From Patescibacteria group bacterium (GTDB taxonomy: Bacteria > Patescibacteriota > Microgenomatia > UBA8517), in NCBI GenBank assembly GCA_038061225.1, contig JBBTZT010000003.1, forward strand, positions 1-58,976: a stretch of DNA of 58,976 nucleotides, read 5' to 3'. The notes below the pieces were generated by a model. The model was not told where the DNA came from and made no database searches. It was given only the letters and a program-made list of their open reading frames with translations. Shown in pieces: positions 32,243 to 39,347 of this stretch. Within the stretch, counting starts at the first letter, position 1. The number at the start of each line of letters is the position of its first letter. Made by a program: the position numbers and the translations under genes.

Positions 32243-35200
32243 ATGAAATCAAATAAACCTTTGCGCCGAAATTTTGGAAAAAAAGAAACAAATCTTCCCA
32301 AGCTTGATTTAACTTTAGTTCAGAGAGAATCTTGGCAATGGTTTTTAATAAAAGGAATAGCTGAAGAATTAAAAGCAATTTCCCCAATTGATGATTTTAC
32401 AGGTAAAAATTGGCAACTAACGCTAGGTGATCATTCTCTTGGAAAACCAACTATTACAGCTTCACATGCACAACAAAAAGGTTTAACTTATTCATCTCCA
32501 CTTAAAATTACTGCAACATTAATCAACAAAAGAACAGGTAAAGAAGTAAGTCAAGAAGTTTTTTTGGGTGATCTACCTCAAATGACAACTCGTGGGACAT
32601 TTATAGTTAATGGAATTGAAAGAGCAGTTATTAATCAAATTGTAAGATCCCCAGGAATATATTTCTCAGGAGAACTAGATGTTTCGTCTGGAAGAACTTT
32701 ATATAAAGCAGAAGTTAGGCCACTTCATGGTTCATGGTTAGAATTTGAGGCTACAAGAGGGGACTTAATTCATGCCAGAATTGATAGAAGAAAAAAGGTT
32801 TTAGCAACAGTTTTTCTTAAAGCACTTGGTATGGAAAGTGAAAAAGAGATACTTAATTTCTTTAAAGATACAGATATTGATAAAGATCATAAATATATTG
32901 AAAGCACATTAGCAAAAGATACAACAAAGAGTAGAGAGGAAGCACTTCTTGAAATTTATAGAAAATTAAGACCAGGAGAACCAGTTTTAATTGAGAACGC
33001 TACAAATTTATTCGAGAGTATGTTTTTGGATAAAAGAAGATATGATTTAGGTGAGGTTGGAAGATATAAAATAAACAAAAGATTTAGTAATAATAATTCT
33101 GACAAGGCATCAAATGTATTAACTTTAAAAGACATTTCTTCTTCACTAACTTATCTTTTAGGTTTACAAAATGGAGTTGGAAGAGTTGATGATATAGATC
33201 ATCTTTCAAACAGAAGACTTAGAAGAGTTGGTGAGTTGGTTGGTGTTAACGCCTTTAGAATTGGATTACTTCGACTTGAAAGATCTGTTAAAGAAAAGAT
33301 GAGTTTGATTTCAGCCGATGACAAGCCACTTCCATCAAATTTAATTAATGCAAGACCTTTAATATCTTCATTAAATGAATTTTTTAGAAGCAATCAATTA
33401 TCTACTATTTTAGATGATACAAATCCTCTTTCAGAAATTGATAATTTAAGAAGAGTTTCGGTTTTAGGTGCTGGTGGAATAAATAAAGAAAGAGCCTCAT
33501 TTTCTATAAGAGATGTTAATTCTTCACAATATGGAAGACTTGATCCCGTAAGAAGCCCTGAAGGTCCAAATATTGGACTTGTTACTTATCTCTCACTTTA
33601 TGCGAAAGTGAATGAATTTGGATTTTTAGAATCTCCTTACAAAAAAGTGATTAAAGAGGGTAAAAAGATGAAGGTCACTGATGGAATTGTTTATTTGACT
33701 GCAGATGATGAAGAAGTTTCAAACATTACCCATTCAGGGATTAATATTAATGAAAATGGTTACATAAAAGATGTAAGAGTACCACTAAGGCATTTAGGTG
33801 GTTTTACAGAGGGACCAGTATCTTTGGTTGAATATATTGACATAAGTCCAAGACAATTAGTTGGTACTTCAGCATCCCTTATTCCATTTTTAGCTCATGA
33901 TGAAGGAAATAGGGCTTTAATGGGATCAAATATGCAATGCCAAGCTGTTCCTTTGGTTGCTCCAGAATCTCCAATTGTAGGAACAGGAATGGAAGCCGAA
34001 GTATCAAAAGCTATGATTAGAAATGTTATTGCAAGACATAATGGAGAAGTTTTTCATGCAGATAATGAAAAAATAATAATTAAACTTGATAAAAAAGTAT
34101 CACCAACAGGTGCAGAGATTGACGATTCAACAGAGGACATCGAAATAACAGATGGTGGTAAAAAGGAAGTATATTCTTTAATGAAGTTCAAAAAAACAGC
34201 TCATTCAACTTGTTATAACCAAAGAATCTTGGTTAATCCGGGTCAAAAAATAAAACAAGGAGATTTATTGGTTGATGGACCAGCAAGTCAAAATGGAGAA
34301 CTTGCTTTGGGACGTAATTTGATGGTTGCATACACTTCATTTGGTGGTTATGGTTTTGAAGATGCTATTTTAATATCAGATAGATTAGTTAAAGATGATT
34401 CATTAACATCAATTCACATTGAAGAATACGATGCTGAAGTAGTTGATACTAAACTAGGTGCAGAAGAAAGAACAAAAGATATACCTAATGTTTCAGAAAA
34501 TGAACTTGCAAACTTAGCGGAAGATGGAATAGTAGTTATTGGTGCTGAGGTCGGCCCAAATGATATATTAGTTGGTAAAATTGCTCCCAAAGGTGAAACT
34601 GAATTAACATCAGAAGAAAGACTTCTTCGCGCTATTTTTGGAGAAAAGGCAAGAGAAGTTAGGGATACTTCTCTTCGAGTTCCTCATGGAGAAAAGGGAA
34701 TTGTAGTAGGAGTTAGCATTTTAGATCGTAACAAAGGTGATGATTTAGGTCCTGGAGTAATTGAAAAAATCACAGTTAAGGTTGCCCAAATTAGAAAAAT
34801 TACAGTAGGAGATAAAATTGCAGGTAGACATGGAAACAAAGGGGTAATTGCAAAAATTATGGCAGTTTCTGACATGCCATATCTTGCAGATGGTACACCT
34901 GTTGATATTATTATTTCACCACTTTCTGTTCTTTCTCGTATGAATTTAGGGCAATTATTAGAAGCTCATTTCGGATTAGCTCTTCATAAAAATAATGAAA
35001 AAGGTGCATTTCCTGTATTTGATCATGTAACAGAGAAAGACTTAATTAATGAACTAAAAAGTGCAAACTTACCCGTAACCGGAAAAGCAAGACTTATTGA
35101 TGGTAGAACTGGAGAATCCTTTAAAGAAGATGCAGTTGTAGGAATTGGATATATTCTTAAATTAACTCACATGGTTGAGGACAAGACTCACGCAAGATCT

Positions 35201-35620
35201 ACTGGACCATACTCATTAGTTACACAACAACCATTAGGTGGTAAAGCTCAAATGGGTGGACAACGTTTGGGAGAAATGGAAGTCTGGGCACTTGAGGCTC
35301 ATAGAGCACAACATGTTTTGCAAGAAATGCTTACAATTAAATCAGATGATATTGTGGGTCGTGCTAAAGCTTTTGAAGCAATAGTTAAAGGAACTGATAT
35401 TCCAGAGTCAACAATTCCAGAGAGTTTTAAGGTCTTAGTCAGAGAATTAAATGCATTAGGTTTAAGTATTATACCAAAAGGAGTTATATTGGCTAGCCAT
35501 ACTTCTGAGGAAGACACCAAAGAGGGAGAGAAATTAGCCAGAGTTTTAGGTGCTGAGATGGTTGCAACAGAAGAATTATTGGATCCTAAAGGAAAGATGG
35601 AGGTAGAAAATGTTAACTAA
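32243..35620 (+). CDS. rpoB: RNA polymerase beta subunit
   Basis: GDKIAGRHGNKG, GGQRLGEMEVWALEA. Confidence 0.99.
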   Translation: MKSNKPLRRNFGKKETNLPKLDLTLVQRESWQWFLIKGIAEELKAISPIDDFTGKNWQLTLGDHSLGKPTITASHAQQKGLTYSSPLKITATLINKRTGKEVSQEVFLGDLPQMTTRGTFIVNGIERAVINQIVRSPGIYFSGELDVSSGRTLYKAEVRPLHGSWLEFEATRGDLIHARIDRRKKVLATVFLKALGMESEKEILNFFKDTDIDKDHKYIESTLAKDTTKSREEALLEIYRKLRPGEPVLIENATNLFESMFLDKRRYDLGEVGRYKINKRFSNNNSDKASNVLTLKDISSSLTYLLGLQNGVGRVDDIDHLSNRRLRRVGELVGVNAFRIGLLRLERSVKEKMSLISADDKPLPSNLINARPLISSLNEFFRSNQLSTILDDTNPLSEIDNLRRVSVLGAGGINKERASFSIRDVNSSQYGRLDPVRSPEGPNIGLVTYLSLYAKVNEFGFLESPYKKVIKEGKKMKVTDGIVYLTADDEEVSNITHSGININENGYIKDVRVPLRHLGGFTEGPVSLVEYIDISPRQLVGTSASLIPFLAHDEGNRALMGSNMQCQAVPLVAPESPIVGTGMEAEVSKAMIRNVIARHNGEVFHADNEKIIIKLDKKVSPTGAEIDDSTEDIEITDGGKKEVYSLMKFKKTAHSTCYNQRILVNPGQKIKQGDLLVDGPASQNGELALGRNLMVAYTSFGGYGFEDAILISDRLVKDDSLTSIHIEEYDAEVVDTKLGAEERTKDIPNVSENELANLAEDGIVVIGAEVGPNDILVGKIAPKGETELTSEERLLRAIFGEKAREVRDTSLRVPHGEKGIVVGVSILDRNKGDDLGPGVIEKITVKVAQIRKITVGDKIAGRHGNKGVIAKIMAVSDMPYLADGTPVDIIISPLSVLSRMNLGQLLEAHFGLALHKNNEKGAFPVFDHVTEKDLINELKSANLPVTGKARLIDGRTGESFKEDAVVGIGYILKLTHMVEDKTHARSTGPYSLVTQQPLGGKAQMGGQRLGEMEVWALEAHRAQHVLQEMLTIKSDDIVGRAKAFEAIVKGTDIPESTIPESFKVLVRELNALGLSIIPKGVILASHTSEEDTKEGEKLARVLGAEMVATEELLDPKGKMEVENVN

Positions 35621-38600
35621 TACACTAGATACATTGTTTGACTTAAAAGATTTAGAAGATTTTGGTTCATTAATAATTAGACTGGCTTCTCCTGAAGATA
35701 TTAGAAGATGGAGCAGGGGTGAAGTGTTAAAACCAGAAACAATTAATTATAGAACTCTAAAATCTGAAAAAGATGGTCTTTTTGATGAAAAGATCTTTGG
35801 ACCTACTAAAGATTGGGAATGTTATTGTGGAAAATACAAAAGAATTAGATACAAAGGTGTAATTTGTGATAAATGTGGAGTTGAAGTAACACAATCTCGA
35901 GTAAGGCGTGAAAGGATGGGGCATATTAGTCTTGCTTGCCCTGTTGCTCATATTTGGTTTTTCAAAGGTGCTCCGAGTAAAATCTCTACAATTTTAGGCG
36001 TTCCTCCAAGAGCAATGGAACAAGTTATTTACTTTGCTAGATATATGGCTCTAAATGTAGATGAAGATAAGAAGAAGGATGCAATCAAACTGTTAGAAAC
36101 TGCTTTAACAGAAGGTGAAAATCAAATAATTACAACCTTTAAAGATAAAAAGAATTTATTAAATCAAGAAGCACAAAAAGCAAGAGAAAAAATTGAAAAC
36201 AAGATTAAAGATAAAGAACAATTATCTCTTGCAATTTCTGAAATTGAACTTGATCAAAGAAAAAAAGAAACAGCAATTTCAGAAGATGAAAAGGTAAATT
36301 TATTAAGAAACTCACGATTATTTGAAAATTTGATAAGCCTTGTAAGAGGATTAAAAACTCTAAGTATATTATCTGAAGAAGAATATGATGAACTTTATAC
36401 TTTCGGGGCAGCAGATTTCTTTGAAGCCAAAATGGGTGCTGAAGCAGTTCTTTCTGTTTTATCTGAAGTTAACTTAGAAAAATTATCAATAGAAATTAGA
36501 AAAGAAGTTGATGAGACAAAAACAACTAGTACAAAATATATAAAGATTGTTAAAAGATTAAAATTAGTTGATGGTTTAAGAAAATCTAAGATTGATCCAG
36601 TTTGGATGATATTAAAAGTACTTCCAGTACTTCCTCCTGATCTTAGACCTATGGTTCAACTATCTGGTGGAAGATTTGCAACCAGTGATTTAAATGATTT
36701 ATATAGAAGAGTTATAAATAGAAATAATAGATTAAAACATCTAATTGGTCTTGGAGCTCCTGAAATAATTTTAAGAAACGAAAAAAGAATGTTACAAGAA
36801 GCAGTTGATTCTTTAATCGATGCATCTCAAAGAAAAGCTACTCGACGTGCTCGTGGTAGACAACCACTTCGTTCTCTTTCTGACATGTTAAAAGGAAAAC
36901 AGGGAAGATTTAGACAAAACCTTCTTGGTAAAAGAGTAGACTATTCAGGTCGTAGTGTGGTTATTGTAGGACCTGACTTAAAACTTAATCAGTGTGGTTT
37001 ACCTAAAGAAATGGCACTTGAAATGTTTAAACCATTTGTACTTCGTGAAATGATTTCAAGGGGTATTGCACCAAACGTAAAATCAGCCAAAAACATGCTT
37101 GATAGAAGGCCACCAGAAATATTTGATATTTTAGAAGAAATAACTAAGGATCATCCAGTGCTTTTAAATCGTGCTCCAACTTTGCATAAACTTTCAATCC
37201 AAGCATTTTATCCAATATTAATAGAAGGAAGTGCTATTAGACTTCATCCTGCAGTTTGTGCTGGATTTAATGCAGATTTTGACGGTGATCAAATGGCAGT
37301 TCATGTTCCTTTATCAAAACAAGCGATTGAAGAAGCAAAAACACTGATGCTTCCTGAACACAATTTATTACGACCTTCAGACGGATCACCTGTTTCTACC
37401 CCTGCTTCTAAAGAAATGGCACTTGGTGTTTATTACTTAACATCAGTTGATACAAAACTAAAAATTAATGAAGGTATTTTTTCAGACAAAGATGAGGCCA
37501 TACTTTCTCATCAAAGTCAAAAAATAGAATTAAGACAGCCAATAATAGTTAGAATTGACGGAAAAATTATTGAGACCACTGTGGGAAGAATTTACTTTAA
37601 TGAGATATTACCTCCTGTTTTTGATTTTATAAATGAAGCTTGTACTTCAACTGTCATCAAGAAATTATTTAGTGTTGCCTACGCCAAGTGTAACTCTGGC
37701 GTTGTTGTTGAAATGATAGACGCAGTTAAGAATTTAGGTTTTTCAGCAGGTACAATTTCAGGAATTTCATTTGGGGTTTTTGATGCCGTATTGCTTCCTG
37801 AAAAAGCAAAAATATTAAAACAAGCAGAAGATAAAGTAACTGAAATTGAAAACAATTTTAATATCGGTCTTATCACTCTTGGTGAAAAGAAAAGGATGGT
37901 TCAAGAAGTTTGGATTGAAGTTTCAGATGATTTGGCAGATAAAACATGGGCTTTAATGACACCTACAAATCCAATCAGAGTTGTCATTGATGCAAAAGTA
38001 GGAAGAGCTTCAAGAGATCAAGTTAAACAATTGTCAGCAATGAGAGGTTTGGTTGTTGATCCACTTGGAAAAATTGTTGAACTTCCTATTAAGTCTAACT
38101 TTAGAGAAGGACTTTCTGTTTTTGAATACGTTACATCCTCTAGAGGATCAAGAAAAGGGTTAACAGATACTGCTATTAAAACAGCAGATGCAGGTTACTT
38201 AACAAGAAGATTAGTCGATGTATCCCACGATCTTATTATTAGACTTATTGATTGTGAAACACTTGATGGAATTACAATTAGAAAGATAGACAGACCAGCA
38301 ATCTTTACAACCAGAATAATTGGTAGATATTTAGTTTCTGATGTAAAAGATAACAAAAACAAAGTAATTGCTGTTAAAGGGGACTTGATAAATGAAGAAT
38401 TGGCAAAGAAGATTGATGAATCAGGTGTGGAAGAAGTAACATTAAGATCTGCTTTGACATGTGCCGCAAGACATGGACTTTGCTCTAAATGTTATGGATG
38501 GGACCTTTCTACTAAAAGTGATGTTGAGGCAGGAACACCTGTTGGTGTAATAGCAGCTCAATCTATTGGAGAACCTGGAACACAACTTACTCTTCGTACA

Positions 38601-39347
38601 AAACACGCTGCTGGTGTAGCTGGTGCAGGAGTTGATGTTACACAAGGTCTTCCAAGAGTTGAAGAATTGGTTGAGGCAAGAACACCAAAAGTTGTTTCAT
38701 CGATCTCTGAAATTTCTGGTAAAGTTAACGTTTCTGAAACGGAAGAGGGATGGAAAGTAGTTGTTTTGGGAACAGGAAAAACAAAAGAGGAAAGAGAATA
38801 TTTGTTACCAAAAACTTTAGAATTAGCAGTTACTGATAAACAGATAATTGAAGCTGGTACAGCTCTAGCCAATGGTTCACTTGATATAAAAGATATACTT
38901 TTAATTAAAGGATTAAGAGCCGCACAAGAATATCTAGTTACCGAACTTCAAAAAGTATATGAATCACAAGGTATTGGTATTAATGATAAACACTTTGAAG
39001 TAATTGTTAGAAAGATGAGTGATGAGATAAGAGTTGTAACAGCGGGAGATACTCAATTCTTGCCAGGTGAACTTTCAAGTAGAGCTACATTTGAAAATGA
39101 AAATGAAAAAACTTTAGCAGCAGGTGGAGAACCAGCATCAGCTCAACAAATAGTTTTAGGAATAACAAGAAGATCCCTTTATACTGAAAGTTGGTTATCT
39201 GCAGCGTCATTTGAACAAACAACTGATGTTTTAACTGAAAGTTCATTAATGTCAAAGGAAGATAATCTACTAGGTCTTAAAGAAAATGTTATTATAGGTA
39301 GGCTTATTCCTGTTACAGCAGAAAAAGCATTAATCAAAAATAATTAA
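35610..39347 (+). CDS. rpoC: RNA polymerase beta' subunit
   Basis: NADFDGD catalytic motif, Zn-ribbon cysteines, [10 protein letters not shown]. Confidence 0.99.

Follow-up and report, generated by a model that had tools for sequence, protein, structure and literature searches.

The trigger loop is the moving catalytic element common to all cellular RNA polymerases, and, to our knowledge, the Phe-His pair at its tip is generally regarded as all but invariant. In a 58,976-nucleotide stretch of DNA from a Patescibacteria group bacterium (Microgenomatia; UBA8517; assembly GCA_038061225.1, contig JBBTZT010000003.1), the whole of which was analysed and is called the window below, the Phe of this pair is replaced by Lys in the product of rpoC, the gene encoding the RNA polymerase beta' subunit (P0001, 1245 aa, 35610..39347; all features described here lie on the forward strand). 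The replacement probably, if by no means certainly, reflects a genuine alternative form of the active-site gate of RNA polymerase that selection has maintained in a large subclade of the Microgenomatia. The gene itself is an ordinary member of the RpoC family that fails one canonical trigger-loop feature, the Phe. Rpb1 domains 1, 2, 3 and 5 were found in its product above the Pfam cut-offs (255.5, 128.4, 64.7 and 182.7 bits, respectively), it is a single copy immediately 3' of rpoB, and the residues of the catalytic center and of the nucleoside triphosphate (NTP) site are those of a bacterial enzyme. Alignment to E. coli showed that the NADFDGD loop, R425 and N458 of beta' are all kept, as are R678, R1106, K1065 and K1073 of the NTP site in beta, together with beta H1237.

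Both subunits were aligned to E. coli K-12 rpoBC with MAFFT and to solved beta' chains with phmmer, and alignment positions such as 935 are given in E. coli numbering. The trigger loop (trigger helices) comprises residues 986-1030 (38565..38699) and is of the short form without an SI3-type insertion, like the best-matching solved chains, with alignment gaps of at most 2 residues in this region. At 38580-38615 the codons in the rpoC frame read ACA CAA CTT ACT CTT CGT ACA AAA CAC GCT GCT GGT. Here AAA (38601..38603) encodes Lys998, which lies opposite F935 of E. coli (TQLTMRTFH) and F1084 of yeast Rpb1, and CAC (38604..38606) encodes His999, the trigger-loop histidine (E. coli H936), which is kept. 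Arg996 corresponds to R933 and Leu995 to M932, so that, measured against the motif [M/L]-R-T-F-H, Arg933 and His936 are present in the window and the Phe at 935 is absent. The subunit, the domain order and the catalytic loop are the same as in the canonical beta' of E. coli, Thermus, Bacillus and Mycobacterium. In contrast to the Phe found at 935 in canonical beta' (three solved chains and E. coli), the window has Lys, and it differs further by M932L, I1134V and W409F and, within the bridge helix (residues 837-873, 38118..38228), by F773V, I774T, T776S, H777R and A779S. The positions that matter most below are Val841 (GTT, 38130..38132; E. coli F773), Val1010 in the second trigger helix (GTT, 38637..38639; E. 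coli I1134) and Phe505 (TTT, 37122..37124; E. coli W409, 16 residues before R425), all three of which switch together with 935 in the class, and Arg845 (AGA, 38142..38144; E. coli H777), which is class-wide. The window beta' also carries V940 and Q1136, and Asp (38187-38189) stands where E. coli has N792.

The preliminary description of this DNA had claimed that Lys replaces the conserved Phe beside the trigger-loop His and that the bridge helix deviates from the canonical form; both claims were borne out by the alignments, the former also by the nearest homologues. K was found at 935 in all 120 nearest protein clusters, which came from NCBI, JGI, ENA and Logan assemblies and bear names such as Woesebacteria, Microgenomates and Patescibacteria, and also in dozens of fetched genomes. 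R777 and S779 were likewise present in 120 of the 120 clusters, the bridge-helix variant of the window was exact in 104 of the 112 clusters caught by a regular expression, and position 933 was R in 92 of the 120 homologues, K in 27 and Q in 1. Since the Lys recurs in every one of these clusters from independent assemblies, a sequencing or assembly error and a private mutation are excluded. The broader possibility of an artefact, in which the Lys codon would be such an error or would belong to a decaying or paralogous rpoC copy, deserves practically no credence, because the open reading frame is intact over 1245 aa, every catalytic residue is kept, and the genome (0.62 Mb, about 92% complete) contains no second rpoC.

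The distribution of the residue was surveyed by DNA-pattern searches over evenly drawn species genomes, 401 of Patescibacteria and 146 of the window's class (one genome, G154, entered only the phylum tallies and another, G451, only the class tallies, both being outside the alignments and trees, and no conclusion rests on either). A K-H pair was observed in 39 of the 401 Patescibacteria (about 10%), of which 11 belong to the window's class and the others to about ten further families, where the contexts included LHSKH, ISSKH, LDSKH, LDTKH, LNTKH, MQSKH and MRTKH. Most matches were the canonical TFH, for which reason Lys as a trait of the whole Candidate Phyla Radiation (CPR) was rejected. A survey of CPR rpoC, as had been proposed at the outset, thus finds K-H recurring across families but not CPR-wide.

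In the class sample, 133 of the 146 genomes matched, with about 67 K, 30 R, 2 H and 34 F at position 935, and one class family missed by the pattern reads H-G-K-R or H-G-K-Q. When the rpoB-rpoC stretch was taken from two to three genomes of each family, about 100 in all, and aligned in E. coli numbering, residue 773 was seen to follow residue 935 within the class: F935 occurs with F773, and K, R or H935 with V, I or L773, the single exception being genome G515 with R935 and F773. R777 and a non-Arg residue at beta 687 were found in every aligned class member, the F type included. The bin of genome G502 (L033 and L034) holds a full K-type rpoC plus an F-type rpoC fragment on a 1.7 kb contig, the latter probably being bin contamination. 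Genome G489 has two F-type rpoC copies on separate contigs.

About 2250 aligned beta'/beta columns were scanned for those separating rows with a basic residue at 935 from rows with F935. Under strict thresholds, only beta' W409F/Y, F773V/I/L, F935K/R/H and I1134V separated both types, and relaxed thresholds added beta' 779 and 784, one insertion column, and beta 374, 1281 and 1282. At each strict column the F type has the residue of E. coli and the outgroup, indicating that the state of the window is derived. The columns conserved in both groups (n = 847, with 54 in the bridge helix or trigger loop) served as the null for enrichment, and the hits were concentrated in these two elements (at least 2 of 3 strict hits, P = 0.012; at least 4 of 9 relaxed hits, P = 0.0016), which supports a putative coordinated remodelling of the trigger-helix/bridge-helix unit.

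The suggestion of the preliminary description that the bridge-helix changes had co-evolved with the Lys holds in part. Positions 773, 1134 and 409 do switch with 935 on the same short branch, but H777R and the T776S-type change occur in class members with F935 as well, the association of A779S is partial, and the pairing is absent from other, independent K935 lineages. Coupling of H777R and of beta R687C to the Lys was therefore rejected, since class members with F935 have both. The idea that beta R678 and beta' K935 had swapped charges was rejected as well, since R678 is conserved and it is R687 that Cys replaces.

Regarding the history of the trait, a beta'-only FastTree tree put the F-type families in a nested position, and a 283-row tree put them as sister. 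In a concatenated beta plus beta' IQ-TREE analysis (59 rows, 2107 columns, trait columns masked), the F-type families formed a basal grade and all basic-935 lineages formed one clade (SH-aLRT 98) on a short stem of 0.036. By this topology, basic 935 arose once in the class (Microgenomatia, including Woesebacteria), without reversion. A joint reversion at four sites in a nested F-type clade, as the beta'-only tree would require, was rejected by the 283-row tree and by IQ-TREE. After this origin, position 935 toggles among K, R and H only, with the Lys codons AAA (35) and AAG (17) and six Arg codons in use, indicating purifying selection for a basic side chain in the face of codon turnover. The change from F (TTY) to K (AAR) alters all three bases, and together with the use of both Lys codons and six Arg codons this also points to selection favouring a basic residue. 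Some CPR lineages have Y, I, T or V at 935, and these are possible intermediates on the way from F to K.

The replaced residue is known from structures and mutants. In E. coli cryo-EM work, the trigger-loop residues surrounding the bound NTP are given as M932, F935 and H936 (PMC10716388; PMC13486597), and F1084 and H1085 are described as triphosphate contacts in a study of Pol V (bioRxiv 10.1101/2023.04.30.538882). In yeast, F1084I is fast and error-prone (PMC3325174) and F1084R is viable only with Q1078S or Rpb2 Y769F as suppressor (PMC12391331), indicating that a basic residue at 935 needs a permissive background. The yeast alleles concern the homologous site beside the trigger-loop His and resemble the natural pattern in this need, but they are engineered and eukaryotic, and their suppressors differ from the natural partners 773, 1134 and 409. 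In the window, Q929 (the equivalent of yeast Q1078) and beta M681, which we take from motif alignment to correspond to Rpb2 Y769, are both unchanged.

Two of the natural partners also have laboratory counterparts. E. coli F773V stabilises the folded trigger loop and gives a fast, error-prone enzyme resistant to pauses, terminators and CBR703, and its 'closed active site' phenotypes, slow translocation included, are known for the E. coli enzyme alone (Malinen et al. 2014; PMC3959191), while I1134V is a reduced-activity (slow) allele (PMC5127505). F773V, A940V and G1136Q have been listed as lineage-specific natural changes that stabilise trigger-helix folding (bioRxiv 10.1101/2024.06.20.599782). 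In the window Val is native at both 773 and 1134; in E. coli each is a laboratory point mutation on its own, and the two shift trigger-helix folding in opposite directions, whereas the clade of the window has both, together with K935, as its wild type. Natural variation of the trigger loop in Deinococcus and cyanobacteria, which tunes proofreading, is a precedent for natural retuning of catalysis (PMC4756841), but none of these cases swaps F935 for a basic residue. The plant Pol IV and Pol V enzymes have divergent trigger loops, and Pol V lacks both F and H in a shortened loop; the window, by contrast, keeps the His and a normal loop length, which places it outside the degenerate class of the Pol IV/Pol V type. 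A literature search, mostly outside subscription journals, found no paper linking trigger-loop variation with CPR or DPANN.

The proposed explanation is as follows. In the ancestor of the large Microgenomatia subclade, the neighbour of the catalytic His, a Phe that packs against the incoming NTP, was replaced by K, and later by R or H in some descendants, and on the same short branch the bridge helix acquired F773V/I, the second trigger helix I1134V and beta' W409F/Y. With the trigger helix closed, the Lys amine could reach the NTP at its beta and gamma phosphates, or else the leaving pyrophosphate, and provide an extra electrostatic contact. If the residues act as each does in E. coli, V773 would stabilise trigger-helix folding and V1134 would weaken it, so that together they may retune the folding equilibrium around the Lys. 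Such an enzyme would remain fully functional, probably with altered NTP affinity, rate, pausing and fidelity. The distinct elongation properties put forward earlier are thus plausible by analogy with the E. coli and yeast mutants F773V, I1134V and F1084I/R.

The same replacement was found far beyond the class. A total of 185,579 species genomes were scanned for GEPGTQ[L/M]TxxxKH, which gave at least 120 loci, and all 120 loci among the matches listed were true trigger loops. The groups among these matches were the Microgenomatia type, an LDTKH group, an MNTKH/MRTKH clade with a canonical bridge helix, a Caldipriscota-titled beta' (1410 aa), two 'Bacillota'-titled sequences, and archaeal A'' subunits (loci such as L121, L122, L124 and L141) reading TLRTKHYAG, TLNTKHFAG and TLDTKHFAG. 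At least 11 changes between F and non-F, and at least 8 between basic and other residues, were counted at position 935 on the 283-row bacterial tree. In the phylum of an Iainarchaeum-titled archaeon (G523), T-L-R-T-K-H was read in the A'' trigger loop of 71 of 72 matched genomes (among G647-G726), while in the phylum of a Nanoarchaeota-titled match K was read in 2 of 68 matched genomes. By these comparisons K935 arose independently in several other CPR families, in Caldipriscota and in one phylum of ultra-small archaea.

Sequences from the global scan were grouped by motif and tree and not by record title, because many titles are plainly wrong. 'Uncultured Gammaproteobacteria', 'Pseudomonadales', 'Methylococcaceae' and 'Methylomirabilota' titles stand on Microgenomatia-type rpoC contigs (L117, L119, L123, L132, L133, L137, L196, L173 and others), and the deposited taxonomy of these metagenome-assembled genomes looks wrong. 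Variation was also observed at the neighbouring His: H936 is replaced by Q, R, K or N in several Patescibacteria families, with at least 5 changes on a 107-row tree, and three such families carry K935. Examples are T-K-Q (L052, L089), H-G-K-R/H-G-K-Q (L096-L099), T-F-K (L112) and T-V-N (L113). Among single representatives at 50% identity (P0123-P0272), MRTFY and MRTFW, in which His936 is changed to an aromatic residue, and MNAIH were read.

Several points weigh against a maintained alternative gate. The Lys-phosphate contact is one that we infer, and the coupling of the four sites rests on one branch and one event. The partners at 409 and 773 seem dispensable elsewhere: the other K935 lineages keep W409 and F773, with V or T at 1134 in some and a canonical bridge helix in most, so compensatory partners are not required. 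Independent contrasts across bacteria between 935 and 773 gave about 1-2 changes in the same direction, 0 in the opposite direction and 4-7 cases unchanged, which is not significant. The two single-gene FastTree trees conflict on whether the F-type families are nested or sister, and CPR proteins evolve fast, so that the change may have been fixed in part by drift. A general coupling of 935 with 773, 777, 779, 932 or 933 across bacteria was rejected, the contrasts being not significant and the events too few.

Drift is the core of the chief rival explanation, in which a mildly deleterious loss of Phe935 was fixed nearly neutrally in symbionts of small population size and then buffered, with Lys as the best-tolerated substitute conferring no distinct property. 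It is considered unlikely, though it draws on real features of these genomes: they are reduced, the tip of the trigger loop is unusually plastic in Patescibacteria (TYH, TTH, TVN, TFK, TKQ, HGKR, DSKH and others), the 283-row tree has at least 21 changes at position 933, and the coupling of 773, 1134 and 409 in the class is, as noted, a single event. Nevertheless, the basic residue, once gained, was conserved over a deep clade despite synonymous codon turnover, and the same three-step change from F to K took place in many lineages and is seen in nearly every sampled genome of one archaeal phylum. F is kept by the majority of CPR and of the sampled Nanoarchaeota, which indicates that constraint at 935 is not generally relaxed. 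A different adaptive account, regarded as doubtful and less likely still than drift, makes the Lys a second, partly redundant group for contacting phosphate or donating a proton, comparable in function to the Lys that serves as general acid in single-subunit polymerases; the change would be convergent in CPR and DPANN, for tighter binding of scarce NTPs. CPR bacteria and DPANN archaea must scavenge nucleotides. A redundant Lys would explain why the His was replaced at least twice in K935 backgrounds (T-K-Q in two families, H-G-K-R/H-G-K-Q in another) and why Arg933 is often lost (to D, N, H, S or Q) in K lineages; both losses fit partial redundancy, and neither is statistically established.

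Avoidance of an inhibitor is a very unlikely cause. The class has changed at beta 526 and 687, which we take to be classic rifampicin-resistance positions in the rifampicin pocket. In the window rpoB, beta R687 is changed to Cys (33938-33940) and H526 to Asn (33443-33445), and both changes are class-wide, 687 being C, T, A, S, G or N and 526 mostly N; the class may thus be naturally insensitive to rifamycins, as these residues suggest. Q513T and F514I are also present in the window beta subunit. V773 is, moreover, a CBR703-resistance substitution selected in E. coli (PMC3959191). On the other hand, F935 is not known as a specific contact of any inhibitor, K935 occurs with a canonical bridge helix in most other lineages, and a single antibiotic would hardly account for convergence between bacteria and archaea. 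The window even has Asp at 792, where N792D raises the streptolydigin sensitivity of the E. coli RNA polymerase (PMC3959191).

As for the surroundings of the gene, rpoB, encoding the beta subunit (P0002, 1125 aa, 32243..35620), overlaps the start of rpoC by 11 nt (35610-35620), which suggests that translation of the two subunits may be coupled. Open reading frames of 140, 159, 725 and 400 aa follow 3' of rpoC, and their sizes alone suggest a str operon of the rpsL-rpsG-fusA-tuf type. A link of the Lys to missing Gre factors was also considered and rejected, as GreA is encoded in the genome of the window.

A basic residue at the Phe position is thus a recurrent and stable natural solution: a large CPR clade is fixed for it, and nearly every genome sampled from one DPANN phylum has it. 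Some of the relatives lack the His too, and all of these polymerases together are ready-made natural enzymes with which to ask whether the trigger-loop His is a general acid or a positional catalyst; the same enzymes bear on the trade-off among trigger-helix folding, the bridge helix and NTP affinity. Positions 773, 1134 and 409 make a short list of partners for mutant cycles. For the organisms themselves, assumptions about antibiotic sites and a 'universal motif' that were drawn from model bacteria do not transfer to those of the CPR and DPANN.

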